Below are positions 6,795 through 57,672 of a stretch of DNA of 64,000 nucleotides, in pieces; the stretch's first letter is position 1, and each line of letters opens with the position of its first letter. Both the position numbers and the translations under genes were made by a program. The notes below the pieces were generated by a model, which saw nothing but the letters and a program-made list of their open reading frames with translations, ran no database searches and was not told where the DNA came from. Source of the stretch: Schmidtea nova (Eukaryota); contig CM097884.1 of NCBI GenBank assembly GCA_044892505.1, positions 95,976,001 to 96,040,000 of the forward strand, written 5' to 3'.

Positions 6795-8515
6795 GACATC
6801 GTTACGGAATAGACGATACATGAATATAAACGTACATGCTGAAGAATCAAAATTCTGGAGCTTGGGTCTTGCTCGTATTAGTGGTATAATGCCTGCAGAA
6901 AAGTGTATTGAATTGTTAGTATAAAAGTTAAATGAACATGGACTAAGGATATTATATATATTATGACAGATGGAGCCAGTGTTATGACAAAAGTTGGAAA
7001 GTTATTATCAGTATATCAACAATTATGTTTGGCATACGGTATACAGCTTTCAGTTATTGACGTGTTATACAAAAAGTCAGATGAAAGAGCCGAATCAGAA
7101 GAAGATACTCTAGTGGATAACCTGTCAGAAAGCGAGACTGAACCTGAAATATGTGGGGAGTTGGAATATAACGGAGCAGAATTAGTAGATCGTACCTGTT
7201 TGCAGCCATGTGAAGTAAATGATGCTTCGTTTGGGCCACTAATAAAGAAAGTTCGGAGAATAGTATCTTTGTTTAAACGCTCACCCACTAAAAATGATTA
7301 TTTGCAAAAATAGGTCCGAGAAGATTTCGTGAAAGAAATTCCGTTAGTAAAGGATTGCAAGACTAGATGAAGTAGTCTATTGGCTATGTTAGAACGTTTT
7401 TTACTTATTAAGAAACTGTGTCCAGAAAGCTCTTATAGATGTAAAACTATATATATCTATAGATATTTCTGAAAATGAAATCCAAGCGATTTCTAAAATT
7501 GTTGGTGCTTTAACACCTATCAAGGCTACTGTTGAAGCTCTTTGTCGCCAGGACGCTAATCTTATTACGGCCGATATCGCTATTAGCATTACGTTGAATA
7601 AACTGTAGGACGCTGATAATATTATTAGTAAAAAGCTGTTTACAGCTTTTACTATTCAATTGAAGCAACGTCGTACGAATTTAAGCGGGCTTTTGTATTG
7701 CCTACATAATGGCTTGAACGGAATCTCTCACTCCGATAAAGAGTTCATTATAGTACCAACACAAACTAAGTACCGTAAATTAATTGTAGATCTTCTTGAA
7801 AGATTGAATGCAACTTCCATTACAGGATGTTCTACAATAGTTACGGAAGTTGATGAATTTCAAGATGTTTCTGTACAGGAGGAAATTGCTAAAGTTATTT
7901 CTGTACAACCGTTAACTACAGCCGAAGAAATTAATAAAGCAATAAATTACAACATGTCACGTCCACAAGTGATACCACATCGATGTGAATCGTTAGTCTC
8001 TAAACTTCGAAAGGAGATGGCTCCATTTGAAAATGGAGACTCACATAGCGATTATTTGAAGTGTGCATATAAATATTTAAAAACGATAAAACCAACCATC
8101 ATGGAGTCAGAAAGAGCCTTTTCTTCTGCAGGTTTATTTTGTAATAAATTACGATGTTCTTTGGGTGATAAGGTTCTAGGCGAGCTCTGTTTCCTCAGAT
8201 GCCACTTCCAACAATAAAAAAGACTTAATCAAGAATTTTAATATGAATTACTTAATATATGAATTTAATAATTACTAACGGATAACTCCATATAATATGA
8301 CTTCCTAATAACATGACTATTCCTAATAATATGATCATTTCTTTTTTATAAAAAGTCATACTAATAAATAGTATGACCATTATTATTTAATGATTTTTTA
8401 AAATTCTTTTATATCAATAATACAATTTCTAAAATAAATTTTTCTGTAAATCACCCAGTGAAAAAAAAGAACATTTACAATTGCTTTTAAGAAATAAGTG
8501 ATTTCATATATGGAG

Positions 8516-23529: not shown

Positions 23530-24822
23530 CATATTCCACATGCAAAAATGTAGCAAGCAATTGGATAAACTATATTGAAACCACTTATTCGGATCTACAA
23601 TGAAAATGATATTTTTAATGAGGATGAAACCGGTCTTTTTTTAAATGCCTTCCGGGTAAATCATTTGTGTTACAAGGAGATAGCTGTCAAAAAGGCAAGA
23701 ACAGTAAGGAAAGAATAACCATATTGCTTTGTGCTAATATGTCAGGGACCGAAAAAATTAAATCGTTGGTTATTGGCAAGTCAAGACGTCCACATTGTTT
23801 TAAAAATGTCAATTCACTGCCAGTGGATTATGATTATAACTTAAAGGCGTGGATGAATTCATCCATTTTTGCTAAATGGTAGAATTTGGGAAGCAAAATC
23901 GGAAAGTTTTGTTTTTCTTCGATAATTGCTCAGCCCAAGGAAAAGATGATCTTATATCCAAACTAAATAATATCCGATTGGAATTCTTTCCTCCTAACTT
24001 AACAGCGCTTCTTCAACCAATGGATATGGGTATTATCAGATGCTTAAAAGTGCACTACAGAAATGGAGTAATAAAAGAAATATTTAGGTTTATTGAGAAA
24101 AAAGAAAATTGGCCCCAAATTACCTTATTAGATTGCATAAAACGAATTTCAAAAATATGGGATGTATACATCTCTCCTACAACAATCAAAAACTGTTTTA
24201 GGAAGTCTGGATTCTATGATGACGATGATAATATTCCGCTAATAAATATTATTGAAGCAACGGAAACAAATTATATTTCCCTACGGCTAATATCCAATTT
24301 CGTAGAGGAGTTTACGGATTATCTGGATTGTGATGTTAATGTTGTGTGTGGGGATATTATGACGGATGATGATATCATTGAAAATGTACAGAATCAATCA
24401 ATGTCTATCAGTAATATATCTGAGGATAGGATTGGTGGGGAAGTGGATGAAACGAATTAGTCTTCTGGATTCTCATTTGTGACAAATTCAGAAATGAGCG
24501 ACTGTATTCAAAAGTTAAGAAATGGAATGTTATAGCGATCTTCTGTACCACAAAGATTTTTCAATACGCTCAATGAAATGGATGTTTTTTTAGAAATGGA
24601 TTAAATGTTTGTTCTGCGGCAAATTATTTTTAATTATGTACTTTTAATAAATTTGTTTTAAAATGTAACATGTTTTTGAAATTTTTCTACTTCGGTCTAA
24701 TAATATTATTAAACTTAGTAATCACAAATATAAGAATATTTCCCTGTTTAATTCGATTTCCTGGGTTATTCGATTAATCTTTAAGGTCTCTTGGAGAATC
24801 GAATTAAACAAGTTATACCCGT
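23530..24822 (+). mobile_element. 5'-truncated Tigger-like (TIGD4/6-like) transposon
   Basis: FNEDETGLF, KERITILLCANMSGTEK, FFFDNCSA, LQPMDMGII; 3' terminal structure TCGAATTAAACAAGTTATACCCG-TA. Confidence 0.8.
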
Positions 24823-34155: not shown

Positions 34156-35023
34156 TGTTGGGTATTTGTTTAAAGTCGGTTCTAATTTCTGACTCCTGGT
34201 GTTCTTTTAACAAATAACTGACCCAACACAATAACTTTTATTTCAATATCACAATTTATCACAACGATTGCACAATATAAGAACTGTCTTTTACACTTAA
34301 CTTGAACTGCTTTCAAGTCACTTGCTGCGAGGGATAAGTCTCCCGAAGGAAGATCTCCCTTTCTGGTGCGCAAACAAATGAATTACGTTTTACTCTACGA
34401 CACTACCTTTTCTGACTCTTCTTCTAATTTCAATCTGTTTGCTGAAATTTTATCTCTTCGACCAACTGGCGACACATTGCAATTCGCTTCTGTTTTTATA
34501 TTGCTCCCTCCTTAATGCTTGCTTGTTCTGCCTCCCAATTTGACATTTGAATCCGCGATTCAAATTAAACTGTCATATTGTAATTTAGTAGCTCTCGCCG
34601 TTTCCATATCCTTCAAATTAACTGTCATAGTGTAATTTAGTAGCTCTCGCCGTTTCCACATCCTTGGAGCAAATTGAACTGTCACTTTGCTTGAGCGGGT
34701 TTCTCTCATCTCTCGGGCTCTCCATTGGCTCGGGCTTCCCATTGTCTCGGGCTTTCCATTAGCCAATTAATTCTTAATTAATATTTTAATTTTTTAATTA
34801 TTTCTTTCTAGGGACCCCCCATCGATTTTATTTTTTATTTATTTGAATTCGTCTCATAATTTGGCACACACCCATACCAATTTCCCCCATGATATATTGA
34901 TTTTAAATTTTATTAATTTTTTAATTAATGTTTTAATATTTTAATTAATTTGGTGATTTTTGCAATTTTACTAATTTTATTTAATTACTTTTAAATTTTG
35001 AGTCACTTTGACAAACCCCAACA
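34156..35023 (-). repeat. 3' LTR (868 bp)
   Basis: TGTTGGG...CCCAACA; differs from the 5' LTR at 34485/49297 and 34810/49622 by eye. Confidence 0.97.
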
Positions 35024-35916: not shown

Positions 35917-36165
35917 NNNNNNNNNNNNNNNNNNNNNNNNNNNNNNNNNNNNNNNNNNNNNNNNNNNNNNNNNNNNNNNNNNNNNNNNNNNNNNNNNNNN
36001 NNNNNNNNNNNNNNNNNNNNNNNNNNNNNNNNNNNNNNNNNNNNNNNNNNNNNNNNNNNNNNNNNNNNNNNNNNNNNNNNNNNNNNNNNNNNNNNNNNNN
36101 NNNNNNNNNNNNNNNNNNNNNNNNNNNNNNNNNNNNNNNNNNNNNNNNNNNNNNNNNNNNNNNNN
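35917..36165. other. Assembly gap (N run) inside the LTR element
   Basis: Run of N. Confidence 1.
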
Positions 36166-36216
36166 AATTAAATATTTATTAGCAACTGTTGTAGTGTGTT
36201 CGAGAAAAATTCCATG

Positions 36217-36668: not shown

Positions 36669-38075
36669 TTAATTAAATTTTAATTCCAAGCTCTCTTCTC
36701 CACACCAATATTGGACGATTGTTCCTTTTCGCACATATGTCTTTCCTGCATATGTTATCGAATTTTCAATTTGCAAATTTGAACCCACTTTTCTTTTCCT
36801 AGTTTCTTTGGCTGTTGAACCCTTTATAAGTGTTGACTTTGCTCTTCCAATAATTGAGCTTGTAAATATTGCCAAACTTTCTTCAATGGGCTCCAGAATA
36901 GTTTCCTCTGCCAACTTCAATTGTATTTCAATTTCCATTATTGATGGTTCTTCTATTGTCAGGTCCACTGTTGTTGTCATTTCCGATGTGCTCTGTGTTG
37001 CTCGTAAATTTCTGTATTCCTCCAGCGAATATATTTTTGAGGGCTGTTTCCTGGGAATCATCACATCATCGATCCATTGACTCTCCACTTTCAAATAAAC
37101 TTTTCTAATGCTTTTCACATCTTCCAACGCGGTGTGGATGCCTGTTTGTGTTTTTTCTCCGCATAATTCTTCAGTGATTGTTTTTAACTTAAACCATTCT
37201 CCTTTTCGGCTTACATTCATTGATTTTAACACTTGCGCTGCTGCCAAATCTCGAATGCCATATAATTTATTGATCCAAATTCCAAGATTATTCAATTCCG
37301 CTTGGAGATCATGACCAATCAGTATTTTTCCTATGGTCAACCTCTGAATATCTTTCATCTCCTGATATTGATCTGCCTGATTTCTACTGGCCACTTCCGT
37401 TATTCCGTGGATTTTGGAATTAAAATGTCTTACTTTCCCTCTTGGTGTAATGTATGTATTTTTTATAATTTTTCCATAATAATTTAGGATTGCGATTGAC
37501 AACGGAATCATTTTTCCGCTTTCGGAGCTTCCATATTCCGCATCGATAAACAAAATTCGATTACGGATTTCTTCTAGATCCATCTCCTTTCTAACAAATG
37601 AGAGCTTCCGTTTTAACATTTCATCTGAAATTGCCATCAAATCCTCCTCATTAGCTTCTGTCGGATGTGTACTTGGAATTTCTCCAACTTCATTTTCAAT
37701 TCTGGTTTCGATAACCATTATGGCATCCTCGTTTGCGGCTCGCAACAAATTGAACATTATTTCCCTCTGCAGTTTCCACGTAGTAAATTTTTTTAATTCC
37801 TTCCGAATCTGATTCCTTTCGTTTAGCATTTCTACCGTGCCTTTTATTATGTGGAGATAATATTGTTCTTTTCTTGCCAATTGCATTTCCTCTGATAACT
37901 TCATTTTGGTGTTTCTGTGCAATTTTAGAATTTGTATTTTCATTCTTCTGTCATCACTTCGAAGGTAGTTGGGAATTTGCAGATTGTTGTTGATCTGGAA
38001 TTTTTGTCCGGCATGGCTTCTGCTGAGTCTGGCGTAACTGTCGTGTACCGATCTTGGCCATTGTAATTGTTCCAT
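36669..38075 (-). CDS. 468-aa protein with an ISG20/REX4-like DEDDh 3'-5' exonuclease domain (about 37090-37560)
   Basis: ExoI ILFIDAEYG; SIAILNYYGKII..TYITP..V..FNSKIHGIT; ExoII GKILIGHDLQAEL; IRDLA; ExoIII HTALED; intact ORF inside the LTR element. Confidence 0.88.
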   Translation of the reverse strand: MEQLQWPRSVHDSYARLSRSHAGQKFQINNNLQIPNYLRSDDRRMKIQILKLHRNTKMKLSEEMQLARKEQYYLHIIKGTVEMLNERNQIRKELKKFTTWKLQREIMFNLLRAANEDAIMVIETRIENEVGEIPSTHPTEANEEDLMAISDEMLKRKLSFVRKEMDLEEIRNRILFIDAEYGSSESGKMIPLSIAILNYYGKIIKNTYITPRGKVRHFNSKIHGITEVASRNQADQYQEMKDIQRLTIGKILIGHDLQAELNNLGIWINKLYGIRDLAAAQVLKSMNVSRKGEWFKLKTITEELCGEKTQTGIHTALEDVKSIRKVYLKVESQWIDDVMIPRKQPSKIYSLEEYRNLRATQSTSEMTTTVDLTIEEPSIMEIEIQLKLAEETILEPIEESLAIFTSSIIGRAKSTLIKGSTAKETRKRKVGSNLQIENSITYAGKTYVRKGTIVQYWCGEESLELKFN

Positions 38076-38491
38076 TTGCTAAAATTATTGAATTTTAATT
38101 TATGTTAATTTTAGAATTTGAAACTATGATCGAGGTTGGGTATCCAAAGGATATCGTCTCAATCAATAGTTGTATAAATAAAAATATTTAATTAATTACC
38201 TATCTATTTGAATTTGAAAAATTCGGACTTTAAAAAAAATTTGAAATTCAATGAGTTTTTGAAATTTTAAATCTAACGGTTTAACCCTTATCCTATATAC
38301 CCTCTTAAATTTCCTTCCCCTATTCAATTTCCTCTTTTTATCCAATCAAATTCATTTGCCAAGCGATCCTTGAAAGCAGTTTTACACCAAAAATAAAAAG
38401 TGTTCCATAAAATGTAATGTTATCAATGAATAAATAAATAATAAATTCTACACTACTGTTACTTATATTGCATGCAGAAATCATTGTCTTA

Positions 38492-39680
38492 CTACACAAA
38501 TGTCTCATCGAAGACAAACCAAGGTCTCGAAGGTTCGGATTGATTTGCCGGAGATTGAAATGATTTTTCGAATATGCACAATACGATAGCCATGATAACT
38601 GTTAGAATTACTGCAAAAGAAATGATGATTATAATCAATGTTATGCACATTTTTTCATTATTCGTTTTCAGGAACAATTTAGTTTGATTATTTACAATTG
38701 ATTTATTGATAGGAATGTTATTAAGAAATGTTGTGGTTTGATATTGGTGTGAATCGTTTGGGTATGCTTCATCATATGAGACTTGAATGAGTTTATTTTC
38801 GACAAACGTTATCTGCCATTGATTTGAATATCGAGTACGACGATGATATTTGATTTTTACGAGAACTAATTTCGACATTGGGTTTGATTGCGATTGTTGA
38901 AAAATTATTGTTTGAGATTGTCTTTTGCTGTCTAGAATTGCTTGCATTTTCCCATAACAATATATAACCGCCTTTTGATTAGGGTCTGTTTGCCTGGTGA
39001 CTTTTATTGCTTGATGGTAGATGTGAAATTGAACTCTATTCGTTTCATTAATTAATGTTATCGTTTGTTGACTGGTGTGAACTTTAACCCATTGATTCTC
39101 CGTATCGGTGCCATTTTCATATAAAGTCTTCTCATAATAGTGAATCACAACATTATAAGTCTGAAATAACTTTAAATTAATATAATTTATGAAGGGTTTT
39201 CTACTATTCAATGTGTCTATTGCATAATTTTGGAAAATCGTTTTTACTTGTTGGGATTCTTGGGGTTCCCAATATACATTAATACTATTTATCGAAGGTT
39301 CAATTGATACCAAATTTTCCCACTTTTTTGTCCAAATTTCTAGGCGTATTATATTACGTATTTCCGTAGTATTCTTTTTAGGATCTAGCTGTGCTACCCG
39401 CCAGGGATATTTGTAATTCATTGTCAGATGACGTGCAACATGATAATTATTATTATAATCCAATTTCACCGGGGGTTCAAAATAATTTAATAAATTATTT
39501 ATTTCTACTTCCTCATCTTTTTCACAGAAATAAATCCACACAATCTGAGTACATGTTGCAAATGTATTGATTCTCTCTAACAATGGGATTCGTTTTGTTG
39601 CAACCGATGGAAGAAATCGTACTGCATTCGTACACAAAACATTCAACATCATTACTGTAGAAATTAGTAAAATTTTATTA
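38492..39680 (-). CDS. Putative second type-I membrane glycoprotein fused behind the integrase
   Basis: Signal-like KILLISTVMMLNVLCTNA; ~330-aa ectodomain with sequons NTT, NGT, NET, NKS, NQT; TM ITLIIIIISFAVILTVIMAIVLCIF; short tail; family unrecognised. Confidence 0.7.
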
Positions 39681-42600
39681 ATGTAGCTTGATGGGGCTGG
39701 GTTTCTATTATACCTCTGTTTGATTGCTTCATCTTCCTTCCGTTTTGATCGTAATGGATATTGTTTTAACTCTTCCACCGGCACCTTTTTACAGCGGTTT
39801 ACATGAACAACTATTGTTCCAGCTTTTTTATTATTCTGTGGACGCAACTTTAGATTAGTCTCTGTAGCATCACATACTACATATGGTCCTTTAAAAGGTC
39901 TTTGCAGTTTCACTGACAATCCTTTAGTCGGCTCTGGCTTATTTACATACACTAAATCTCCAATTTTAATATCATGCGCATGTGCGCGTTTATCATAGCA
40001 CTCTTTATAAGCTTCTTGATGGTGTTTTATTTTAAGACCTGCTTGAACCCATACTGACTGCAATCTCTCTTGCATAATTACTTTATAATCGGATACATCC
40101 ATATATTGGGAAATAGGTGACTGAAATTTCAAATCAATTGGCATATTATTACGTCGTAAATACATAAGGTAGAAAGGTGTTTCACCGGTACTTTCATTAC
40201 CTGCATTCCGATATGCAAATAGGCATGGTTTAATATACAAATCCCAATCTTTTTGCTTTCTATTTACATAAGAAGATATCATATTTATTAGTGTTCCATT
40301 GAATCTTTCCACTAAGCCATCTGTTTGTGGATGATAAGGTGATGTACTTATTTTCATTATTCCGAATAATTCTGTGATCGATTTGAATAAATCACTTTGA
40401 AAATTTGTTCCTTGATCTGTAAGTAATTTTTTTGGTGCTCCATATCGAAAGATTATGTTTTCAACAAATATTTTTGCTACTGTCTCTGCTTTTTGATTTG
40501 GCATAGGATAAGCTTCTGGCCATTTTGTTAAATAGTCACAAAAGACAATAATGTATTTATTTCCATTTGTCGTTTCTGGTAGTGGACCCACGATGTCCAT
40601 TGCCGTCATTTCCATCGGCGCTTGTGGTACTGGCATTGGCTTTAAAGGAACTTTAATTTTCTTTCCTGTATTTCTCCTGGTTAGACATATTTCACACGTA
40701 TGACACCACTGTTTGACATCTTGCTCCATCGTGTCCCAATAATATTTTTGCTTTAATCTCGATAATGTTTTACGTGCTGATAAATGTCCTCCCAATGCTC
40801 CATCATGATACAACAACAGTAATGATCTTCGATATTTTGTTGGAACGATAATTAATAAATTTTCATTTTTTACACATTTTAGCAAACCATCATGGACAAT
40901 ATATTTATGTTTTTCCTCAACAACATGTTTCCAGTCACTCTCCTTTTTGATGGTGACAGCATGTTGACGTAGCTGATTTAATTCAATATCATTTTCTTGA
41001 TCATTTTGTAATTCTTTTAGATTGTTTACAGTTTTAATTGCCATAAATATTGTATTTTCATAATTTATTTCACTTCTACCATCATTATTTTCGTCATTAA
41101 TTCTCGATAACGCATCGGCATTTGCATTTGACTTTCCTGAACGGTACTTTATTTCGAAATCATATTCTTGCAGCGCAATTGACCATCGGATTAATTTGCT
41201 GGCTGAATCTCTGTGCTTCATGAGCCATTGCAGTGGATTATGGTCCGTAAAAACAATAAACTTTCTACCGATTAGGTGTTGTCTGAAAGTAGTTATTCCA
41301 TATACCAACGCTAAAGTCTCTTTTTCGATTGTAGAATAATTCTTTTCATGTGGCTTTAATGTTCGACTAGCATAGGCAATTACATGATCTTTTTCACCTT
41401 CCACTTGTTGACCCAACACTGCTCCTAATGCGAAATTACTGGCATCTGTCATTAATATGAACTGTCTCTTAAAGTCTGGGCATCTCAAAATTGGTTGTTT
41501 TAATAAACTTTCTTTCAGAATATCAAATGCATTTTGTTGAGCCGTCATCCATTTAAATTTAGTTTGCTTTTTAAGCAGTATATTCAAAGGTTGTGCTACA
41601 TGCGAAAAATTTTTAATAAATTTTCTATAATAACCTGCTAAACCAAGAAATTGTCGAACTTGATCAACATCTTTTGGAATTGGATAATTTTTGATTTTCT
41701 CTACATTTTCGGGATTCGGCTGTAATCCACGTCTTGAAATAATATGACCCACATAAACAACTTCAGACTTTCCCCATTCGCATTTTGATGGTTTTATTTT
41801 TAAATTTGCTTTTAATAATCTTTTGAATACTGTTTCAACATCTTTTAAATGCTCTTGAAAACTGCCTGAAAATATTATTATGTCATCAATATAGACTAAT
41901 GCATGTGGAATGTCGCGTAATACGAAATTCATGCCTCTCTGAAAAGTAGCAGGTGCTCCTGTTAATCCAAATGGTAAAACGTTAAACTCGTATAGGCCTT
42001 TACCATCTGAAAATGCAGTTTTTCTCTTGTCATCCTCTTTTACTTTAAATTGGTTGTATCCTTTATTTAAATCAATTACTGTGAAAAATTGTACCTCGCC
42101 CATTTGATCAAACATTTCCTGTGGAACTGGAATAGGATATGTATCTTTTCTCGTGACCTGATTCAACTTTCGATAATCTACACAAAATCGCAAATCTCCA
42201 TCTTTCTTTTTAACAACCACTATCGATGATGAAAATGGTGATGAACTATCTCGTATAATATTGAACTCTTTCATTGCTTTAATTTGCCGATCACTTTCCT
42301 CTTGATGAACGTACGGAATCCTATACGGTCTCAATTTGATAGGAGTTTCATCAAGTAATGGTATCTCATGCTCAATTATTTGAGTAAGTCCCAAATCATA
42401 TTCATGCCTAGCAAATACACTTTTGTATTTCATTAATAGGGCTGTAAATTCTTCTCTTTGCTCATCTGTCAAATCCTTGCTTGTAACTTGAGGTTGTTTA
42501 TAAATTTTAATGTTCCTTGGTAACTTTTGAACTTCTTCAGCTTCAATTTTTATCAATTTCCCCAATTTTGTTTTGGGTTGCATCTGGATAGATTTTGTGC

Positions 42601-44158
42601 CACAATTTGCTATTCGTACTGGCACTAATTTATTTTTGACTCTCACTAACTCATCACACATAGGTAAATCATATTTTTCTATTAGTTTGTGATTTGGCTC
42701 AAATATGCATTCCTCATCTGGTGCATTTATAACATCTGCATAATATATTATTTCGCTTTTTGATGGTACTTCAACCATTTGATTTAGAAATACTTCTCCG
42801 ATCTCCTCAATAACTTCACCAGTTTGACCTTTCACTAATTTTCCGGTATTTAGATCGAGTGAGATTCCTTTTAACTGCTCCATAACGTCCATACCAATAA
42901 GGCATTTAACCGGGCTCTTTCTCATTACCACTACCCAGTGGGATATCTCTTGATCTCCAATCTTTAATTTGGCTTGTACTTTCCCTATGATATTCAGCAA
43001 ATTATGCGACATTGATTTAATACGCTTATTCGTTGGTTTCATTTCTTTAATTTCTTGATACATTAATAATTCCTCTGACACAATAGTATGACTTGAACCT
43101 GAATCTAATAAGGCTTGCACTTTTCGATCATTAAATAAGACATCAATCCGAGGTTGTTTTCCTCCCGTTACCATCGTCATTAGTGCATAGCTGCATGGTA
43201 ATCCGAGCATATTTTTGCGTTCAATTTCTGCACTCGTTGGTTCAATTTTCTCTGTTCCACTTTGAATATCATCTAATGGTTTCATCTCTTTTAACTTTTC
43301 TCCGGGATATACAGGTGCTGTCGGTACAAATGTTGGAGTATACCATCGAGTTAGTGTATCAATTCCGCTTAATTTTGGCATTGGTTCTAGTAAGAATCTA
43401 GTTTCTGGTTCTGTTTTATTTTTCAATATACCCTTCCGATAATATTTTGACTCGGTATTACCTCCATCATTATTATTGTTCTGACTATTGATCTCTTCCG
43501 ATTGACATAATGATTCCTCACTTTTTTGATCCTTTCTCAATTGTGCTCTTACATTTGCCATTTCTTTGTATTGATGATTTGTAATGAAAAATCTGGCCAA
43601 AAATGGGATACAACCGATTATTATTTTCCATGACCATCCGGAAATAGCGTATATTCTATGTGCTGACAACACTTGCGATACTATCACTTTCATTGTCACT
43701 GCAATTACGTAGATTCCAATTAAACCGGCACAAGCTTGTCCTAAGAACATAAATTTACCCCAAATCTTTTCCATTGTTTTATACGTGGCTCTTTTAAAAT
43801 GATCGGGCGTCAACAAATACTCATAATTCACTTTTCCCTCTCCATTGGGTAATATTGTATCAACCATTTCTGAAATTACCCTTTCCTTTTTCGATGGAAA
43901 TAACAAATTTCTTTGAGCCTCTTCGATATCTTCGCTTGCATACAAACCCGTTTGTGCCATTTTATTTAATGATGTGAAATTTACTAAATATTCTAAGTTC
44001 GTTAATTCTAATTTATCGGGTGTTTTTACTCCTCTGTAATCTGGTAACGCTATCCATGAATCTGGCGTTAAACGATACAACGGCGCAAGTAGTCGATTGC
44101 ATTGTAATATTTTCGGTTTCGTCTGTTCTTCAAGCAATATTCGAGTAATTGGTTCCAT
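38492..44158 (-). CDS. pol: 1888-aa polyprotein segment: env C-terminus/TM, PR, RT, RNase H, IN, second membrane protein
   Basis: LLDSGS (43105); LRFCVDYRKLN, LPFGL, YIDD (41890); TDAS RNase H; HHCC, MDIVGP, TDQG, VERFN, GPY integrase; in frame with both upstream ORFs. Confidence 0.97.
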   Translation of the reverse strand: MEPITRILLEEQTKPKILQCNRLLAPLYRLTPDSWIALPDYRGVKTPDKLELTNLEYLVNFTSLNKMAQTGLYASEDIEEAQRNLLFPSKKERVISEMVDTILPNGEGKVNYEYLLTPDHFKRATYKTMEKIWGKFMFLGQACAGLIGIYVIAVTMKVIVSQVLSAHRIYAISGWSWKIIIGCIPFLARFFITNHQYKEMANVRAQLRKDQKSEESLCQSEEINSQNNNNDGGNTESKYYRKGILKNKTEPETRFLLEPMPKLSGIDTLTRWYTPTFVPTAPVYPGEKLKEMKPLDDIQSGTEKIEPTSAEIERKNMLGLPCSYALMTMVTGGKQPRIDVLFNDRKVQALLDSGSSHTIVSEELLMYQEIKEMKPTNKRIKSMSHNLLNIIGKVQAKLKIGDQEISHWVVVMRKSPVKCLIGMDVMEQLKGISLDLNTGKLVKGQTGEVIEEIGEVFLNQMVEVPSKSEIIYYADVINAPDEECIFEPNHKLIEKYDLPMCDELVRVKNKLVPVRIANCGTKSIQMQPKTKLGKLIKIEAEEVQKLPRNIKIYKQPQVTSKDLTDEQREEFTALLMKYKSVFARHEYDLGLTQIIEHEIPLLDETPIKLRPYRIPYVHQEESDRQIKAMKEFNIIRDSSSPFSSSIVVVKKKDGDLRFCVDYRKLNQVTRKDTYPIPVPQEMFDQMGEVQFFTVIDLNKGYNQFKVKEDDKRKTAFSDGKGLYEFNVLPFGLTGAPATFQRGMNFVLRDIPHALVYIDDIIIFSGSFQEHLKDVETVFKRLLKANLKIKPSKCEWGKSEVVYVGHIISRRGLQPNPENVEKIKNYPIPKDVDQVRQFLGLAGYYRKFIKNFSHVAQPLNILLKKQTKFKWMTAQQNAFDILKESLLKQPILRCPDFKRQFILMTDASNFALGAVLGQQVEGEKDHVIAYASRTLKPHEKNYSTIEKETLALVYGITTFRQHLIGRKFIVFTDHNPLQWLMKHRDSASKLIRWSIALQEYDFEIKYRSGKSNANADALSRINDENNDGRSEINYENTIFMAIKTVNNLKELQNDQENDIELNQLRQHAVTIKKESDWKHVVEEKHKYIVHDGLLKCVKNENLLIIVPTKYRRSLLLLYHDGALGGHLSARKTLSRLKQKYYWDTMEQDVKQWCHTCEICLTRRNTGKKIKVPLKPMPVPQAPMEMTAMDIVGPLPETTNGNKYIIVFCDYLTKWPEAYPMPNQKAETVAKIFVENIIFRYGAPKKLLTDQGTNFQSDLFKSITELFGIMKISTSPYHPQTDGLVERFNGTLINMISSYVNRKQKDWDLYIKPCLFAYRNAGNESTGETPFYLMYLRRNNMPIDLKFQSPISQYMDVSDYKVIMQERLQSVWVQAGLKIKHHQEAYKECYDKRAHAHDIKIGDLVYVNKPEPTKGLSVKLQRPFKGPYVVCDATETNLKLRPQNNKKAGTIVVHVNRCKKVPVEELKQYPLRSKRKEDEAIKQRYNRNPAPSSYINKILLISTVMMLNVLCTNAVRFLPSVATKRIPLLERINTFATCTQIVWIYFCEKDEEVEINNLLNYFEPPVKLDYNNNYHVARHLTMNYKYPWRVAQLDPKKNTTEIRNIIRLEIWTKKWENLVSIEPSINSINVYWEPQESQQVKTIFQNYAIDTLNSRKPFINYINLKLFQTYNVVIHYYEKTLYENGTDTENQWVKVHTSQQTITLINETNRVQFHIYHQAIKVTRQTDPNQKAVIYCYGKMQAILDSKRQSQTIIFQQSQSNPMSKLVLVKIKYHRRTRYSNQWQITFVENKLIQVSYDEAYPNDSHQYQTTTFLNNIPINKSIVNNQTKLFLKTNNEKMCITLIIIIISFAVILTVIMAIVLCIFEKSFQSPANQSEPSRPWFVFDETFV
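39780..40830 (-). CDS. Integrase domain (HHCC, DDE, GPY/F)
   Basis: YHDGALGGH...CHTCEIC; AMDIVGP, LTDQGTNF, GLVERFN; FKGPY. Confidence 0.97.
41100..42400 (-). CDS. Reverse transcriptase and RNase H domains
   Basis: PYRIP, DLNKGYNQF, YIDDII, FLGLAGYYRKFI, FILMTDAS, EKETLA, TDHNPL, NADALSR. Confidence 0.98.
42850..43160 (-). CDS. Retropepsin protease domain
   Basis: VQALLDSGSSHTIV ... CLIGMDVM. Confidence 0.95.
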
Positions 44159-45450
44159 AAATCGTAGCTTACCCCCAACACTTACGGGTAACTCATTTGT
44201 GCATTTTTCATATTTTGCAATTTTTACAGCGATTTCCTTACATTTGTAACTATATAATGCTTCTCAAAAAATTCTCGCAAATACGCCATTTTCCGATATC
44301 AGCATAGGGGCTACTAAGTTCGGGTTTGTGACTGCCATTGCCATTCGATTCCGAAGAATGTCTTTATTCAATTTACAATCATTAAGAATCATTTCTCTAT
44401 AAACATTCTCCATGATGTCTTGACTAAAATGAAATAAATAATCGATTTTGTTATTGAAATAATGCGTTAATTTAATGTCGTTTACATGAATTTTAGTTTT
44501 TGCGTCTTCAACTATTCCTTTTGAAACATAGACGCCTTTATAATTTGTTGTATATAATATTCGCCCACATTTATTCGTAACTTCCTTTTTTATAAAACGC
44601 ATGCTATCCGTTGGCGATGTTGACATCAGAACTGCACTCATTTTCCTGGTCATTATTGGAGTTGATTTAATTGCTTCTTTTGATTTATAATTCATGCTAA
44701 AACTATCGGGTCTTTCCTGAAATTGTTCTCCGATTATTTCTTTAAAATTCATAGTTTTTAGAAAAGCCAAATTACATTCATTTACCTTTACATTATAAAC
44801 TAAAATCGACTCTCCTGTTTGACAATTTGTCTGTTTCATATTACAGAATGGATGTGTCTGTAATTTTCCCGTATCGTCATCAAATGCTCCTTCGAACTCT
44901 CTAAGTTCCGTAACGTACTCCTCAAATACTACCGTTTTATCCACCATTTTACCATTCATTTTATACGGTTCGCCTTCGCAATCTCCATTTGCTTTCATTA
45001 TCCCTTTCACAACTACTGTCTCTCGTATTCTGTGATTTAATTTAGCTTTCAATCGGATTTCCGAACTTATTTTTAATTCTCCTGTTTGAAATGCTGTCAA
45101 ACAATTTTCTGGAAAAATCTCAACTGGTCTCGGTATTGCATTTACTTTTATTAATGACGAGTGGCTCCACTTTCCACAATAAAACACAAACGTTGTATGT
45201 TTCACGCTACACTCTCTAACTTTAGTTCGTCGTAAATCTGATTCTTGATATACGTGGTATTTTACATCATTTTCAACTTTTAATTTACTCGGATAGGCAT
45301 CTGGGCATTCTGACATATCTACTACTGAATAAATTTTTCCCATTTCCGTTTGGGAGCAATCATATGCAACTAATGACGTCGCTTGTGCAATAACTGTACA
45401 CAGGATAATCATTGTAAACATCAACCATGGGAATATTCCTATTCTCTTCG
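43560..45450 (-). CDS. env: Envelope fusion glycoprotein, Chuviridae G-like (class III-like), with one in-frame TGA at 44264-44266
   Basis: Signal peptide then LVAYDC; YCG..SH; G.CEG..Y; YFNNKIDY; C..N...L.N.MA...P; ARIF[*]EALYSYKC...C.NELPV...FMEPITRIL; GLYASEDI; WGKFMFLGQACAGLIGIY TM; GWSWK. Confidence 0.85.
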
Positions 45451-47647
45451 TTTTCAGCCTGACTTTATCCCACAATTGTCTTGTTCCTTCCTCATTTTCT
45501 TTCGTATCTAGTGGTGGGCACAATGTCATCCAACCACCCTTTTCTTTTATCCATTTGCGCAAATATTCATTTAGCATTCTGGCTGCTATATCTATTAAAT
45601 CATCAAGCTTTTCCGGTTCTACAAACGCATGAGTTCCTATTTCCAAAATTGCATATGTCAGACTCATCAATACTACCTCCCTATTCACTTCCTTTTGGAT
45701 CAACTCTTCAAAAACCTTTCTCTCACAGAAATTATTTCCTCTACCAAATCGTTGTACTACTTCAGGAAGCCTATTTTTCAATTCTTTGACTATCTCTTCC
45801 ACATCTTCCTCCACTTGCAATTCTATCTCAAACATTGGATATATCGTTTTAAGCAGATGCTTTAATATCTGTTTTGTTTCATCTACTTCTTTTTCAACTC
45901 TTACCAAATTTCTCTTTATTTCATACAAAGTTCTAGGTTTACCATTTTTATTGCTAACTTCATTAAGCACATCTGATTTTTGTCTTTCCGCTTCCTGTAC
46001 CTGATCTCTCACTATTGGATTCTTCTGAAAACTGCCATCTATAATAGTCTCATTTTCTTCAGTTTCTTCGATTTCCTCCTCCCCTTCGTCTGACTCTGAA
46101 TTCTCTAATTCTTCCATTCTTCCTACTTGTACTTCCTTCACCGCTACTATTCGATTTTTTACATATCCATTACTTCCCTCCATACTTAAATATCCCTCTT
46201 CATTTACTTCTAACGGTAAACACCCGCAATCATATAGATACTCGTCATCATCTAACAGTTCCCCTTTATACCTCAACGTTATGATTCCATCCATTCCTAA
46301 CATTTTCGAAGCTCTTCTACGTACCCTTTTTACCTTTGTGCACCAATGCTCTTCAGTATATTCCGTCTTTCCACGCTCTTCATAATCTATTGCTATAACT
46401 AAACGATTCTGCTCGACTCTGTCTTTTCTAAGCTCTTTACCCATTTTCCTCAATAAGCTTTTAAGCTTTTTACTGTATCTAGTTCTCCCAGATAAATATG
46501 GTCGTATTAAATTCGCGATTTCTACTTTATCTTTAGATTCAAGCTCACATTCCTCGATCATTTTTAATTTGTCATTTATTTCATTTTCATCTCCACTATA
46601 TAATGCATCATTTAACTCTTTTATAATTTCTACTGGATCTCTTTTAATTGTCACACAATCTTTTTGTAGCGTAATTATTTGCAACTCGTTTTCATTACCT
46701 GGAATAAACCCACAATCTATTAAATATTCGTTATCTTCTAATTTTTGATTTTTAAATCTCAACTCTCTCATTAATCCATCTCGTTTGTCTGTTAATTTAT
46801 TTTTTAAATCTCTCACACAATCATTGACTTCACAACGTATACAATTTACACTTTTATCCCTCTCATCAACAACATCAATAAAAATAAAATCTAACCATTC
46901 CTTTTCTCGAAACATTTTCCCAAATATTTTCATCATATCTTTTATTTCGTCTCTATCCTTTGAATTCACTTCACAATAACTTGCACATACATTAATTACA
47001 CTTTTTAATTTCCTCATATTCAATGACATTTTACTCAATTCTTTTAGCGAACTCATTATTTTGGATGAATCTTCTCTTCTCGCTTCTATTAATTTTTCAA
47101 TTCTTGTTATAATCATTGTCGATAAGTCAATTCCTAGATCATCTTTGACACATTTTCTTTTCGTTTCAGTTTCCATCATTCCTTCTGAGTCATACATCAT
47201 TTGATTATTTACTTCCTCATCGGATTCAAATTTTGACATAAGCCGATCCAAACGTCGACCTATTTCTTTAACTTCGCTTTCAATTCTTTCTTTGAAATCA
47301 TCTGGCTGAACAAAAGCTACATTATCATGCATGGATTTATCAGTTTGGAATCTGATTGTTTTCTTTAGAATTGGTCTTTGAAATTTATCATTATTTCTGG
47401 GGCACGACCTGGCCATATGTCCATAACCTCTGCATGAGTGGCATTGGATTTGTCCTTGCAAATTGACTTTGTCCCTCTGCGGTGATGGTGATGTCGATGG
47501 AGATCTTGACTTGGCATAACAATTTCTCGATACATGTCCTTTCTTTCCGCAATTGAAACAATGCATATTATCATTTACTCGTGGAGTACTGTCATTAAAT
47601 TTGTTAAACATTTTATCATCATTACCTTTCATCCAATCCGGCCACAT
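44264..47647 (-). CDS. 1127-aa segment: 2 zinc knuckles, coiled coil, 2 ubiquitin-like domains, Bcl-2-like domain, env ectodomain
   Basis: CFNCGKKGHVSRNC and CHSCRGYGHMARSC; Ubl, BH1/BH2 and env motifs as listed in the separate features. Confidence 0.9.
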   Translation of the reverse strand: MWPDWMKGNDDKMFNKFNDSTPRVNDNMHCFNCGKKGHVSRNCYAKSRSPSTSPSPQRDKVNLQGQIQCHSCRGYGHMARSCPRNNDKFQRPILKKTIRFQTDKSMHDNVAFVQPDDFKERIESEVKEIGRRLDRLMSKFESDEEVNNQMMYDSEGMMETETKRKCVKDDLGIDLSTMIITRIEKLIEARREDSSKIMSSLKELSKMSLNMRKLKSVINVCASYCEVNSKDRDEIKDMMKIFGKMFREKEWLDFIFIDVVDERDKSVNCIRCEVNDCVRDLKNKLTDKRDGLMRELRFKNQKLEDNEYLIDCGFIPGNENELQIITLQKDCVTIKRDPVEIIKELNDALYSGDENEINDKLKMIEECELESKDKVEIANLIRPYLSGRTRYSKKLKSLLRKMGKELRKDRVEQNRLVIAIDYEERGKTEYTEEHWCTKVKRVRRRASKMLGMDGIITLRYKGELLDDDEYLYDCGCLPLEVNEEGYLSMEGSNGYVKNRIVAVKEVQVGRMEELENSESDEGEEEIEETEENETIIDGSFQKNPIVRDQVQEAERQKSDVLNEVSNKNGKPRTLYEIKRNLVRVEKEVDETKQILKHLLKTIYPMFEIELQVEEDVEEIVKELKNRLPEVVQRFGRGNNFCERKVFEELIQKEVNREVVLMSLTYAILEIGTHAFVEPEKLDDLIDIAARMLNEYLRKWIKEKGGWMTLCPPLDTKENEEGTRQLWDKVRLKTKRIGIFPWLMFTMIILCTVIAQATSLVAYDCSQTEMGKIYSVVDMSECPDAYPSKLKVENDVKYHVYQESDLRRTKVRECSVKHTTFVFYCGKWSHSSLIKVNAIPRPVEIFPENCLTAFQTGELKISSEIRLKAKLNHRIRETVVVKGIMKANGDCEGEPYKMNGKMVDKTVVFEEYVTELREFEGAFDDDTGKLQTHPFCNMKQTNCQTGESILVYNVKVNECNLAFLKTMNFKEIIGEQFQERPDSFSMNYKSKEAIKSTPIMTRKMSAVLMSTSPTDSMRFIKKEVTNKCGRILYTTNYKGVYVSKGIVEDAKTKIHVNDIKLTHYFNNKIDYLFHFSQDIMENVYREMILNDCKLNKDILRNRMAMAVTNPNLVAPMLISENGVFARIF
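45520..45930 (-). CDS. Bcl-2-family-like domain
   Basis: BH2-like YLRKWIKEKGGW; BH1-like VFEELIQKEVNREVVLMSLTY (NWGR degenerate) with plausible spacing; basic stretch and hydrophobic helix follow. Confidence 0.75.
46180..46405 (-). CDS. Ubiquitin-like domain 2
   Basis: TKVKRVRRRASKMLG...ITLRYKGELLDDDEYLYDCG resembles ubiquitin QRLIFAGKQLEDGRTLSDY. Confidence 0.6.
46665..46895 (-). CDS. Ubiquitin-like domain 1
   Basis: EVNDCVRDLKNKLTDKRDG...RELRFKNQKLEDNEYLIDCG...LQII resembles ubiquitin VEPSDTIENVKAKIQDKEG...RLIFAGKQLEDGRTLSDY...LHLV. Confidence 0.7.
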
Positions 47648-48577
47648 TCACTTTGGACTTCTCTGCATGTTCTCGTTGAACCAACATTGATTACTAGTAT
47701 GACCCATCTTTTGACAATTATTGCATTGAATTGGAGTTGGGCTTCTTTGGGATCTGTTTTTGAGCCAACATTGATTCACATGATGTCCCATTCTTTGACA
47801 ATGGCTGCATTGTATTGGCATTTCTTTCTCCTCCCTTGGAGCATTAGTTGTTTGACTTGATTGGAATTTGGCTTTGAATTTTGGCGAAGGACTGCTATAT
47901 TGTTGAAATCTGTTGTTCTTCTCAGGAGTTACTGATCGTTCTTGTTTTTGTTCCATCATTGCAAACGATTCTGAATTTGATTGTGTACTTTTCAAATTAA
48001 GCTCAATTTTCATGGCCTTTTTGATTAATTCATCGAAGTTGTTGAAATCGACATAGCATAAAGCCTTTTTGATTTCCTTTTTAACTCCCGATAAAAATTG
48101 ATCTTGCAACAGTTCCCTTACTTGCTTTGCCACTTCTGGTTGATCGGGTTTGGTTTCGAAAGCTTTTTCTGCAAGAGTCGTTAGATGATAAGCAAATTCA
48201 CTTACAGATTCATCAGATTTTTGCATTCGATTGTAAAATTTTTGGCGCATAATCCTTTTGATATCTCCTCCGATCAATTTAGCGGCTAATGAATCTTTAA
48301 GTCTCATCCAGTCATTTCCGATTGTCCTTTTGTCAATTTGTTGCCATACTTCTCTGGCTGCTCCCTTTAAATACAAGGGCAATCTTTGTATCATCGTGGC
48401 TTGGCTCCATCCATACGCATTGGCATACATATAATAGTCTGCCATGAAATCGACAAATTCAACTGGATCTCCTCCATATTGGTTAACTGGTAGCTTTTGA
48501 CAATTAGCGAGATCATTGCCATTTCCTGCGTGACTTGTCGACATCGGCGCTTCATCATTACTATTTGAATTGCTCAT
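47648..48577 (-). CDS. gag: Gag (capsid domain plus 2 CCHC zinc knuckles), 309 aa
   Basis: LPLYLKGAAREVW, FYNRMQKSDESVSEFAYHL, DQFLSG; CSHCQRMGHHVNQC and CNNCQKMGHTSNQC; its TGA is followed immediately by an in-frame ATG. Confidence 0.95.
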   Translation of the reverse strand: MSNSNSNDEAPMSTSHAGNGNDLANCQKLPVNQYGGDPVEFVDFMADYYMYANAYGWSQATMIQRLPLYLKGAAREVWQQIDKRTIGNDWMRLKDSLAAKLIGGDIKRIMRQKFYNRMQKSDESVSEFAYHLTTLAEKAFETKPDQPEVAKQVRELLQDQFLSGVKKEIKKALCYVDFNNFDELIKKAMKIELNLKSTQSNSESFAMMEQKQERSVTPEKNNRFQQYSSPSPKFKAKFQSSQTTNAPREEKEMPIQCSHCQRMGHHVNQCWLKNRSQRSPTPIQCNNCQKMGHTSNQCWFNENMQRSPK

Positions 48578-48946: not shown

Positions 48947-48964
48947 ATCACGTCGGGCTCACCA
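48947..48964 (-). promoter_or_regulatory. 18-nt primer-binding site, tRNA-Trp-like
   Basis: TGGTGAGCCCGACGTGAT, 3 nt from the 5' LTR; one mismatch to the common metazoan tRNA-Trp end ATCACGTCGGGGTCACCA. Confidence 0.85.
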
Positions 48965-48967
48965 AAA

Positions 48968-49835
48968 TGTTGGGTATTTGTTTAAAGTCGGTTCTAATTT
49001 CTGACTCCTGGTGTTCTTTTAACAAATAACTGACCCAACACAATAACTTTTATTTCAATATCACAATTTATCACAACGATTGCACAATATAAGAACTGTC
49101 TTTTACACTTAACTTGAACTGCTTTCAAGTCACTTGCTGCGAGGGATAAGTCTCCCGAAGGAAGATCTCCCTTTCTGGTGCGCAAACAAATGAATTACGT
49201 TTTACTCTACGACACTACCTTTTCTGACTCTTCTTCTAATTTCAATCTGTTTGCTGAAATTTTATCTCTTCGACCAACTGGCGACACATTGCAATTTGCT
49301 TCTGTTTTTATATTGCTCCCTCCTTAATGCTTGCTTGTTCTGCCTCCCAATTTGACATTTGAATCCGCGATTCAAATTAAACTGTCATATTGTAATTTAG
49401 TAGCTCTCGCCGTTTCCATATCCTTCAAATTAACTGTCATAGTGTAATTTAGTAGCTCTCGCCGTTTCCACATCCTTGGAGCAAATTGAACTGTCACTTT
49501 GCTTGAGCGGGTTTCTCTCATCTCTCGGGCTCTCCATTGGCTCGGGCTTCCCATTGTCTCGGGCTTTCCATTAGCCAATTAATTCTTAATTAATATTTTA
49601 ATTTTTTAATTATTTCTTTCTGGGGACCCCCCATCGATTTTATTTTTTATTTATTTGAATTCGTCTCATAATTTGGCACACACCCATACCAATTTCCCCC
49701 ATGATATATTGATTTTAAATTTTATTAATTTTTTAATTAATGTTTTAATATTTTAATTAATTTGGTGATTTTTGCAATTTTACTAATTTTATTTAATTAC
49801 TTTTAAATTTTGAGTCACTTTGACAAACCCCAACA
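48968..49835 (-). repeat. 5' LTR (868 bp)
   Basis: Near-identical to 34156-35023. Confidence 0.97.
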
Positions 49836-54776: not shown

Positions 54777-56224
54777 CCCTTTGGCAGACAACGACGTGTT
54801 TATTGCGTCATGTGGTGGTTTTTTGTAGGACATGACGTGATATCACGTCAATATTTGCAAACGCAATAAAGCCATGACATCATGTCATTGACATGATATA
54901 ATGTCTTTGTTTTTATATGTTTACTTAGGAATTCAACATATTGTGTGTCCCATTAGAAGACATATAAGCAAAATGTGTGTCCCGTCAGAAATATTTATAA
55001 AGTATATTGTTTAACGTGAACATGTTTGGTCGTGAAATTCTTTGATATCACCATGACGTGATATGCCATCACAGATCCATATGAAAATTATTAATTATGC
55101 GACAAGTGTTCAACAAATAACATATTTTTGTGTTAGTCGTGAAAAACGTATTTTTAATTATTTTTATGTTTAAATTGATTTTATTTAAATTTATAAATAT
55201 CTAATATAATATAGATATAAATAAAAAATAACTAATTTACATTTATGAATAATAAAAAATTATAGAAATGGACCAATATGAAAAACAGAGACAAAATTTT
55301 AAAACTTTTTGAGGATGTTGGTGATGATTTGGATGAATCTGATATATCTGAAGCTGATGCATTCAGCGCAGGAAGTGAAGTGGACCCAAATTATGTACCG
55401 GAAGAAACTTCTGATGAAGATGATGATGATGAAAATATTCAAAATGGTGGAGCCGTTGTCCTTGATGTAGTTGTCATTCCAAATTTTAATTTTGACCATA
55501 CAACTGCAGGAATTCAGATACCAATTGAAGATAATGCCACACCGGTAGAAATATTCGAAAAGTAAATTACATCACAAATATTGTCAATGTTGGTACATTC
55601 AACTAATGAGTACGGGTCAAAAATATGCAAGACAGATAAACCTAAGTTAAGATATTCGAGAATGGCTGTTTTAACCCAGTTGATACTATTGAAATGAAGA
55701 AATTTTTTTGTCTATGTTTTCTACAAGGCCAAATCAAAACACAGAAGATTAGACATTTATTTTCATCAAATCCATTATACCATCATCCAATTTTTTCAAA
55801 AACAATACCTGGAAGGTGGTTTGAGCATATTCTGCGTTGTTTCAATATATTTCTGAATGGGGAGAAATATAAATGTAAAAATACCAACAAATTATTAAAT
55901 ATGTTGTGTCAGAACTTCAGAAAGATTAATAGTCCTGGTGAATGTTTGACTTTGGATGAATTCTTATTATTGTTCAAAGGTCGTCTTCGTTTTGAACAAT
56001 ATATACCATGCAAACAAGAACGATATGAAATTAAATTTTTTGAACTTTGTGATCTTAATGAATATGTTTATAGTATTGAAATGTATCAAGGAAGGTTTGT
56101 AGAAATTGACAACTCACAAAATGTTTCTTTATTTAAAATATATAGTATTGTTATGAAATTAATGAGCAATTTGTTACACAAAGGACATATATTATTTATG
56201 GATAATTTCTACAATAGTTTTTGA
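54777..56224 (+). mobile_element. piggyBac transposon, 3'-truncated and degenerate
   Basis: TTAA then CCCTTTGGC left end; acidic N-terminus; TLDEFLLLFKGRLRFEQYIP and FMDNFYNS (PGBD4-like); right TIR not found. Confidence 0.85.
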
Positions 56225-56813: not shown

Positions 56814-57672
56814 TCGGACAGGAAAAAAAGGGTGCAGGTGGATTTGAACATAAGCAAATGTATTGGGAGGTAAGAAATTTTTAAATTGTAATTGTTTATT
56901 TCAATTTGAAAATTTAATTACAGATTTACAACAACATGTCCGTATTTGCCTTTAGGGAGAAGACTCACCTACCCTACATACGAGGAATATCTGGCGTTGA
57001 CAGACCTGCCACTCTTGCATACGCAACCAAATCAGAGACCAGAGTTCCCGGAGGAATCGCCATCCGAATAGGTAAGCCCAGTAAGTTTGGTTCTACTTCT
57101 AAAAACAGTTGTAATTTTAAAAGAGCTCTTGAAGCTCCAATAATGTCTGATGCGATAAAAATACTAGAAACTAGCGAATCTTTCCATTTTATCACTAAGC
57201 GCAAAACAATAATGGAGTCGCTAATACACCATTTCGGTGAATTTTCAAAGGAATTTATCGATTTACTCGATTGGAGGAGTCATATATTTGTTGGTTCAAG
57301 TGGGATTGGAAAGACAAATTTTGCTCTTCCACATTTTAAGAAGCCTGTACATGTAAAGCATCTACAAATGTTAAATATAATAACTTCCAATCGTGAACAA
57401 TGTGATGGTGAAGTATTCAATGATCTTTATTTTAATAAGGCTAGAATCGAAGAATTTTTATCGCTAATCGATTGAACTTATGAAAATGCGGTTAACATAG
57501 AGTATTCTGTTGCGATTGTATCAAAAGGCCTTCCCAGAAATTTTTGTGTTAATAATATTGATTTGTTTTATCCGGAAAACGTTACCAGTACTGTTATGGA
57601 AGCTATTAAACGATGTATAAACATACATAAATTTCATGGACAGAGTTTTAAATCATTTTTATCTGAAAAAGT
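56309..57672 (+). pseudogene. rep: CRESS-DNA-virus-like Rep (HUH endonuclease plus SF3 helicase), 3 in-frame stops, one 54-nt intron
   Basis: Motif I-like FAFQV (56723); motif II GQEK..GGFEHKQMY (56849); motif III YATKSETR (57020); Walker A GSSGIGKT; Walker B VFND; motif C FCVN; intron 56870-56923 GTAAGA...TTACAG. Confidence 0.8.

Follow-up and report, generated by a model that had tools for sequence, protein, structure and literature searches.

We describe a cysteine-rich viral fusion glycoprotein, here called G, encoded at 45448-43559 on the minus strand of a 64,000-nucleotide stretch of the Schmidtea nova genome (GenBank assembly GCA_044892505.1, contig CM097884.1, positions 95,976,001 to 96,040,000; hereafter the window), in a reading frame shared with Gag and Pol. 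The region very probably represents the envelope (ENV) domain, a class III fusogen resembling herpesvirus gB, of a copy of a planarian-type GAG-ENV-POL element of the Ty3/Gypsy type, and this assessment includes a processing model in which G passes through the membrane once. The element itself is a full-length long terminal repeat (LTR) element of 15.7 kb on the minus strand that holds G between Gag and the protease, and the copy is recently inserted and now broken.

A preliminary description of this DNA had proposed a fusion glycoprotein with a chuvirus-like cysteine and motif pattern at 43560..45450, and this is borne out by the match of G to the Pfam family PF24664 (Monjiviricetes_fusion; E 1.7e-87, 294 bits versus a cut-off of 27, scored with X in place of an in-frame stop) and by its conserved cysteines. 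The layout of signal peptide, ectodomain, and C-terminal membrane anchor is present in the sequence. The internal signal peptide (45374..45448, minus strand) reaches a Kyte-Doolittle mean over 19 residues (KD19) of 2.3 and has a predicted signal-peptidase cut after A-T-S; of the 18 family members in which G is part of a polyprotein, 17 have small residues at -1 and -3 with an identical offset, as do 68 of 96 other G proteins. The class III (gB-like) fusion ectodomain that follows (43808..45373, minus strand) is broken by a TGA and carries one N-glycosylation sequon and 14 conserved cysteines, each kept in 110-117 of the 117 aligned sequences, while no R-x-K/R-R site was found in it.

The fold points in the same direction. 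Among the Foldseek matches listed for the structure model of G (mean pLDDT 88.3) against the PDB, 34 out of 34 were herpesvirus gB (best E 1.4e-15), and among those listed by the VIA search 49 out of 50 were gB and one was a rhabdovirus G (Mokola virus G), with the best gB match at Z 10.5 and a root-mean-square deviation of 7.1 over 384 aligned residues. A 91-sequence profile of G gave 31 weak matches to the PDB (E 0.05-2.3), all of them herpesvirus gB. Since all the Foldseek and VIA matches listed belong to class III, G passes the test set in the preliminary description, which would have been contradicted by best structural matches outside that class. These results support that G is a class III fusogen of a chuvirus-like family, and the earlier label "chuvirus-type" holds at the family level only.

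Two hydrophobic segments had been noted at the end of the domain, and both were found in the places indicated, at residues 563-594 (43762-43667) and 599-622 (43654-43583) on the minus strand, with best KD19 values of 2.19 and 1.42, respectively. They had been considered a topology puzzle, as Pol behind them must end up in the cytosol, and it had been suggested that only one segment crosses the membrane. The hydrophobicity statistics of the family agree with this suggestion, and we consider it highly probable that G crosses the membrane once and that segment 2 is non-spanning. The first segment was placed correctly in the preliminary description, but it is not one membrane segment, since it would consist of a membrane-spanning part (residues ~566-586) and an amphipathic continuation (587-603). 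We thus predict an amphipathic membrane-proximal helix, probably on the luminal side (residues 548-565; 43754..43807), a single transmembrane helix recognized from its uncharged run (residues ~566-586; 43691..43753), and cytosolic membrane-associated helices (43583..43690), namely the amphipathic helix 587-603 and a helix 604-622 with a Cys-x-Pro kink, all on the minus strand.

Both segments were compared over an alignment that included 116 of 156 proteins with enough coverage, to which P0157 was later added (identifiers of this type denote our set of relatives). P0013, which has a divergent end, was left out of the C-terminal counts, and nine proteins longer than 720 residues without a retroelement label, as well as P0017, were left out of the KD19 counts. 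Segment 1 contains an uncharged run of at least 18 residues in all 17 members of the polyprotein type and in 80 of the 99 other proteins, versus 2 of 17 and 32 of 98 for segment 2, and the median longest run in the 17 polyprotein members is 21 residues in segment 1 versus 10 in segment 2. Likewise, a KD19 of at least 1.6 is reached in segment 1 by 15/15 polyprotein and 80/89 stand-alone proteins, in segment 2 by 1/15 and 8/89, and in helix 548-565 by 0/15 polyprotein proteins and 0/90 others, the latter helix having a family mean hydropathy of -0.62 and a helical moment of 1.03. A lysine or arginine closes the uncharged stretch of segment 1 at residue 587 in 95 of 116 sequences; polar positions recur at 587, 591, and 595, after which a glycine turns the chain. 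Segment 2 contains a proline in 17/17 and a cysteine in 14/17 polyprotein members, and it is bounded by K/R at residues 608 and 619, which are charged in 82% and 88% of these members. In the frame of the window, no further KD19 peak of at least 1.5 was found between segment 1 and a second signal located after the integrase.

An alternative is that both segments span the membrane as a hairpin, which would leave the Pol behind G luminal and useless, so that a working Pol would have to come from spliced RNA or from a polyprotein that skips the signal. The KD19 of segment 2, the conserved turn glycine, and the helix-turn-helix in the structure model can be read in this way, and gB-type ectodomains can have two flanking transmembrane domains according to the accessible text of Chary and Hayashi 2026 (PMC13524379), which reads as one domain on either flank and not as a pair at the C-terminus. 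On the other hand, segment 2 is hemmed in by the basic residues 608 and 619 and broken by the invariant proline of the polyprotein members, with Pol in the lumen the post-integrase signal would have the wrong orientation, and the G-Pol fusion is retained in many stop-free relatives. We therefore regard the hairpin as improbable.

Several points nevertheless weigh against the single-pass processing model and the envelope assignment that includes it. The topology was read from hydrophobicity scales of a heuristic nature. Segment 2 is borderline, being fairly hydrophobic, and about a third of the non-polyprotein G proteins (32 of 98) have long uncharged runs in it. The structure model, which is that of a monomer without a membrane, turns at a glycine kept in 111/116 sequences and continues with two helices, an arrangement that a hairpin could also give. 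Because the polyprotein members form one clade, their counts are not independent. P0006, one of the six relatives with a complete integrase, lacks the post-integrase signal, and P0021 has a partial pattern only. Besides, the copy has two in-frame stops, and the window sequence does not demonstrate protein production.

The two-segment end is family-wide and equally visible in stand-alone G proteins without Pol, so that the puzzle is real in its two segments but not peculiar to this element, and it mostly dissolves. With a single pass, Pol would be cytosolic, and a second signal and anchor after the integrase would fit a cytosolic Pol. In intact relatives, one long polyprotein would be made, of which Gag would stay in the cytosol, while the internal signal after a putative Bcl-2-like domain would thread G into the endoplasmic reticulum and be cut by signal peptidase. 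Helix 548-565 would rest on the luminal leaflet and helix ~566-586 would span the membrane, transfer stopping at the conserved basic residue, and the amphipathic and Cys/Pro-kinked helices would be embedded in the cytosolic leaflet or lie on it, with no further pass through the membrane. The protease, reverse transcriptase, RNase H, and integrase (PR, RT, RH, and IN) would then emerge in the cytosol and be freed by the protease of the element, and the second signal past the integrase would start a second type I membrane protein. The domains and their order, the class of the fold, the hydrophobicity pattern across the family, the intact relatives with one continuous frame, and the place of the element in its family are observations, from which we infer the membrane orientation, the cleavage sites, a palmitoylation of the cytosolic cysteines, and the fusion activity of G.

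The membrane logic of G would fit that of herpesvirus gB, which has a membrane-proximal region, then a single transmembrane helix, and on the cytosolic side an amphipathic helix that binds the membrane (accessible part of PMC12607583). G shares the fold of gB, with ~11% identity. This match extends over the ectodomain (model residues ~24-507), and for the membrane helices the resemblance to gB is one of analogy. No treatment of the topology of G, or of a second membrane protein past the integrase, was found in the accessible literature, although subscription papers, figures, and supplements may hold one.

The copy is broken, as two in-frame stops interrupt its frame. A TGA at 44266-44264 (minus strand), missed by the preliminary description, splits the ectodomain of G, which rules out both an anchored G and a G-Pol fusion as products of this copy; Gag is split as well, by a TGA at 47650-47648 (minus strand) between zinc knuckles 2 and 3. 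The divergence of the LTRs would lead one to expect ~0.7 stops, with a probability of 0.16 for two or more and an upper bound of 2.5 stops expected, and therefore two stops are unremarkable. Programmed read-through, in which both codons would be regulatory stops that set the amounts of Gag, Env, and Pol, could be considered since both are TGA and in frame, the LTRs differ at just 2 of 868 positions, and a single open reading frame (ORF) would otherwise yield all products in equal amounts. Nevertheless, the stop in G sits in a near-invariant column, which has no gap in 116 relatives and a single residue type in 112 of them, and in relatives the frame stays open all the way from Gag to G. Together with the expectation from divergence, this makes read-through very unlikely, and damage or an assembly error is the likelier origin of both stops.

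G has many relatives, and those closest to it are mostly polyproteins or fragments of them. Searching long proteins yielded 10 homologues, nine of which have a protease domain in the ORF shared with G. In 8 of 22 scanned proteins a single ORF free of stops encodes G, PR, RT, and RH, and in seven of these eight an integrase as well. A representative library gave 1,491 matches at E 0.001; among the best 150 of these, the near tier consists mostly of polyproteins and their fragments, and the far tier mostly of proteins of 600-720 residues with ~21-29% identity. In a profile search for relatives of G only 10 proteins were obtained, none named as a virus, and scans of prokaryotic genome contigs returned no relative (0/49 and 0/21 candidate stretches). 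P0009, a G-PR-RT-RH-IN polyprotein of the G family, carries the NCBI label Flavobacteriaceae bacterium, which probably reflects animal DNA that was binned with bacterial sequences. In P0002-P0008, P0012, and P0018, G is followed by two to four protease-like motifs, and some are also located past the integrase; P0004 ends with ankyrin repeats, and P0005 and P0006 have C2H2 fingers. P0022 and P0023 are chimeric gene models in which host genes (MRP-L47 and FAD oxidase) are joined to fragments of a close relative of G.

The preliminary description had pointed to a chuvirus-type glycoprotein captured as in arthropod LTR elements. Such a recent capture by the lineage of the element, comparable to that in the mosquito BEL/Pao element Anakin, would be in line with the best viral structural matches, which are chu-like glycoproteins (E 1e-40), and with a family model that is named after the Monjiviricetes. 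However, these top matches among the predicted viral structures of BFVD share just 16-19% identity with G and include glycoproteins of xinmo- and qin-related viruses. In a tree of 117 G sequences, the 18 polyprotein-type proteins group in a single clade to the exclusion of the 99 others (SH-like support 1.0, stem 0.455); three of the 18 lack a protease motif downstream of G. The sequences were picked for their similarity to the query, however, a selection that favours such a clade. The identities of G and of the RT-RH region covary over eight elements (rho 0.77, permutation p 0.015), and the small G and RT-RH trees of these elements disagree at weakly supported nodes. The clade and the covariation of G with RT suggest an old association of G and Pol rather than a fresh capture. 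The RT, moreover, is of the Ty3/Gypsy type, and the nearest named relative is planarian; hence capture of the arthropod kind did not hold up as the immediate origin of G, and we consider a recent capture hardly credible. The glycoprotein phylogeny proposed for naming the donor recovered the polyprotein clade, but it identified no donor virus.

Elements of this type are known. Chary and Hayashi (accessible text of PMC13524379) reported gB-type GAG-ENV-POL Ty3/Gypsy elements in nematodes, bryozoans, and flatworms, for which they argued an ancient origin and which are not monophyletic. ENV domains I-II of six Schmidtea elements are given in their supplement 2; two of these elements, Smed_errantivirus_1 and Smed_errantivirus_2 of Schmidtea mediterranea, belong to Platyhelminthes C1a and have 45 and 215 intact copies, respectively. 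Over domains I-II, G of the window (residues 59-309) is identical to Smed_errantivirus_1 at 183 of 251 positions (73%) and to Smed_errantivirus_2 at 162 of 251 (65%), counted by hand without gaps, and all three have eight cysteines in common. Smed_errantivirus_1 and _2 share 64% identity, and values of 31 to 64% were obtained among the 12 published pairs shown. The element in the window shares with both a Ty3/Gypsy Pol and a gB-type ENV between Gag and Pol, and differs from them as a distinct family at ~73% and as a copy with two stops. Judged by sequence identity, its closest named relative is thus the planarian GAG-ENV-POL element Smed_errantivirus_1, and the ENV position, the similarity over domains I-II, and the cysteine pattern place it in Platyhelminthes C1a. 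The accessible main text of PMC13524379 has no mention of Bcl, exonuclease, or single ORF; the published elements may or may not carry extras like the Bcl-2-like domain and exonuclease ORF of the window.

The planarian element Burro, described as the first case of an in-frame env between gag and pol (Arkhipova and Yushenova 2019, accessible part of PMC6431247), also resembles it by description. The single ORF of Burro/GYPSM1 contains Gag, CCHC knuckles, ubiquitin/SUMO-like and BCL2-like domains, env, PR, RT, RH, and IN, and its env matches mononegavirus fusion glycoproteins (PMC6431247). With its putative Bcl-2-like domain, the element in the window would have the order Gag-Bcl-2-like-Env-PR-RT of Burro, but Burro exceeds 30 kb and encodes ~4,900-5,100 residues, as opposed to 15.7 kb and 3,396 codons here. 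The giant size of Burro is thus absent from the element in the window, in which no Pfam match to its extra domains (MATH, BIR, and ankyrin) was found.

The nematode endogenous retroviruses described by Sacco and colleagues in 2022 reportedly have a continuous gag-env-pro-pol ORF. As cited in the accessible text of PMC13524379, Sacco et al. 2022 placed ENV before POL in these metaviruses. Anakin (Dezordi et al. 2020, accessible part of PMC7642597) is likewise an LTR element with a chuvirus-like glycoprotein of gB fold, but it is an arthropod BEL/Pao element, whereas the element in the window is of the Ty3/Gypsy type and has G inside Gag-Pol. The Pfam scan found no Pao-specific family, and its Gag, RNase H, and integrase matches are of the Ty3/Gypsy type; the best PDB match of the RT is the Ty3 RT (E 6.9e-90), with the proviso that the PDB may hold no BEL/Pao RT. 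A survey of arthropods reports no clear capture of such a glycoprotein by Gypsy elements in its accessible part (PMC10084718).

The glycoprotein and its position within Gag-Pol are already published for planarian elements and will not surprise a specialist. What is added here is a testable model for the processing of a fusogen within Gag-Pol, with one pass through the membrane and a conserved non-spanning helix behind it, and a pointer to a second membrane protein past the integrase. If such planarian elements form enveloped particles, they would offer a tractable invertebrate retrovirus-like model in stem cells.

The structure of the remaining element is that of a Ty3/Gypsy (Metaviridae) element, with LTRs, a primer-binding site, a polypurine tract, the order PR-RT-RH-IN, and a Ty3-type RT. 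The 5' LTR (48968..49835) and the 3' LTR (34156..35023), both on the minus strand, measure 868 bp with TG...CA ends and are 99.77% identical (2 mismatches over 868 bp), and the target-site duplication CTAC of 4 bp flanks the element at both ends. The polypurine tract lies just before the 3' LTR (~35037-35025). The primer-binding site (48947..48964, minus strand) begins 3 nt past the LTR and is probably that of tRNA-Trp, as 12 nt show one mismatch to the Trp_CCA 3' end given in supplement 1 of Chary and Hayashi (PMC13524379); no tRNA genes were found in the window. A Troyka element (accessible part of PMC12440569) was ruled out on account of the TG...CA termini and the 4-bp duplication. A single frame from 48679 to 38492 (minus strand; 3,396 codons, interrupted by the two TGA) encodes in order the capsid, the four zinc knuckles, a region of little-known character, the putative Bcl-2-like domain, the signal peptide, G, PR, RT, RNase H, integrase, and a second unit of signal, ectodomain, and anchor. 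Between 36670 and 35024, ahead of the 3' LTR, ~1.6 kb of AT-rich non-coding DNA contains long AAT repeats and an assembly gap (~35917-36166).

In Pol, all on the minus strand, we recognized the aspartic protease (42866..43159; gag-asp_proteas E 2.6e-8, RVP), the reverse transcriptase with RNase H (41162..42214; RVT_1 E 3e-31, RT_RNaseH E 2e-38), and the integrase with zinc-binding domain, core, and GPY motif (39880..40846; Integrase_H2C2 E 2e-19, rve E 2e-11), the GPY motif being at frame residue 2931. A dUTPase-like insert was not confirmed in the element.

Fused past the integrase is a predicted second type I membrane protein (38492..39676, minus strand), composed of a signal (39676-39620, KD19 1.67), an ectodomain of ~320 residues with six sequons, an anchor (38638-38582, KD19 3.32), and a short tail. 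A pair of signal and anchor is found past the integrase in four of the six relatives with a complete integrase (P0005, P0009, P0010, and P0012), three of which contain an L-x-P-x-T-x-Y motif, which we take to be FN3-like. For the ectodomain, FN3 was obtained as an Atlas lead only (0.90, low recognition), and neither a Pfam family nor a significant PDB match was found. Comparison with the corresponding region of relatives revealed no significant similarity outside the anchor. A separate ORF of 469 codons (36669..38078, minus strand) encodes a DEDD-type 3'-5' exonuclease domain (37550-37095), with a match to RNase_T above the cut-off (E 2.8e-8) and matches to ISG20L2 (E 2.6e-5) and ISG20 (E 1.1e-4). 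DEDD exonuclease ORFs are known from rotifer LTR elements (accessible part of PMC5408684).

Gag (47402..48577, minus strand; Retrotrans_gag E 6.5e-7, zf-CCHC) comprises the capsid and four CCHC zinc knuckles starting at 47809, 47725, 47560, and 47443. A possible ubiquitin-like domain (46199..46414, minus strand) has a homologous segment in six relatives; it gave no Pfam match and only weak PDB leads (E 0.37, and 0.69 for 2daf). The structure 2daf is presumably that of a ubiquitin-like domain. Two similar motifs within 46900-46199 (minus strand), near 46735 and 46249, may reflect a duplicated ubiquitin-like domain.

Directly ahead of the signal peptide of G lies the putative Bcl-2-like domain (45530..45796, minus strand), for which the support is consistent but sub-threshold. 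PF00452 matched it with E 6.4e-6 and 27.1 bits, under the cut-off of 31.4, and all 60 among the PDB matches listed were Bcl-xL or Bcl-2, at E 0.035 or weaker. Atlas leads were Bcl-2-like 15 and BID (0.91-0.92), and a fold from a seven-sequence alignment (pLDDT 38.5) matched nothing at E 0.001, with many of its weak matches belonging to the Bcl-2 family. Four relatives have a homologous segment, and a BH2-like motif is also found in P0003, P0004, P0011, P0013, and P0017. A homologue search with the ubiquitin-like and Bcl-2-like region returned none among 6,880 candidates. Since the Bcl-2-like domain ends shortly before the signal of G, this signal, once cut, might act as a tail anchor for the domain. 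It is conceivable, if rather unlikely, that the element represents an enveloped planarian retroelement transmissible from cell to cell with a flavivirus-like processing, in which host signal peptidase would free both the fusogen and a post-integrase type I protein as its receptor-binding or activating partner (as gH/gL for gB), and the cut signal would stay behind as the tail anchor of the Bcl-2-like domain.

The flanks of the element contain further mobile and host-derived sequences. Fragments of Tc5/pogo-type DDE transposases and of a DDE_Tnp_1_7 transposase were recognized by Pfam at 13090-14100, 17119-18029, 23876-24460, and 55646-56224, and the ORFs at 621-2331 and 6936-8217 are hAT-like by eye. 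An ORF at 56918-57475 (plus strand) with a Walker A-like motif had no supporting Pfam match, and we take it to resemble the Rep helicase of circular ssDNA viruses. A fragment of proteasome subunit alpha 6 (27350-26997, minus strand; E 2e-35), which has diverged and lacks introns, is possibly a processed pseudogene.

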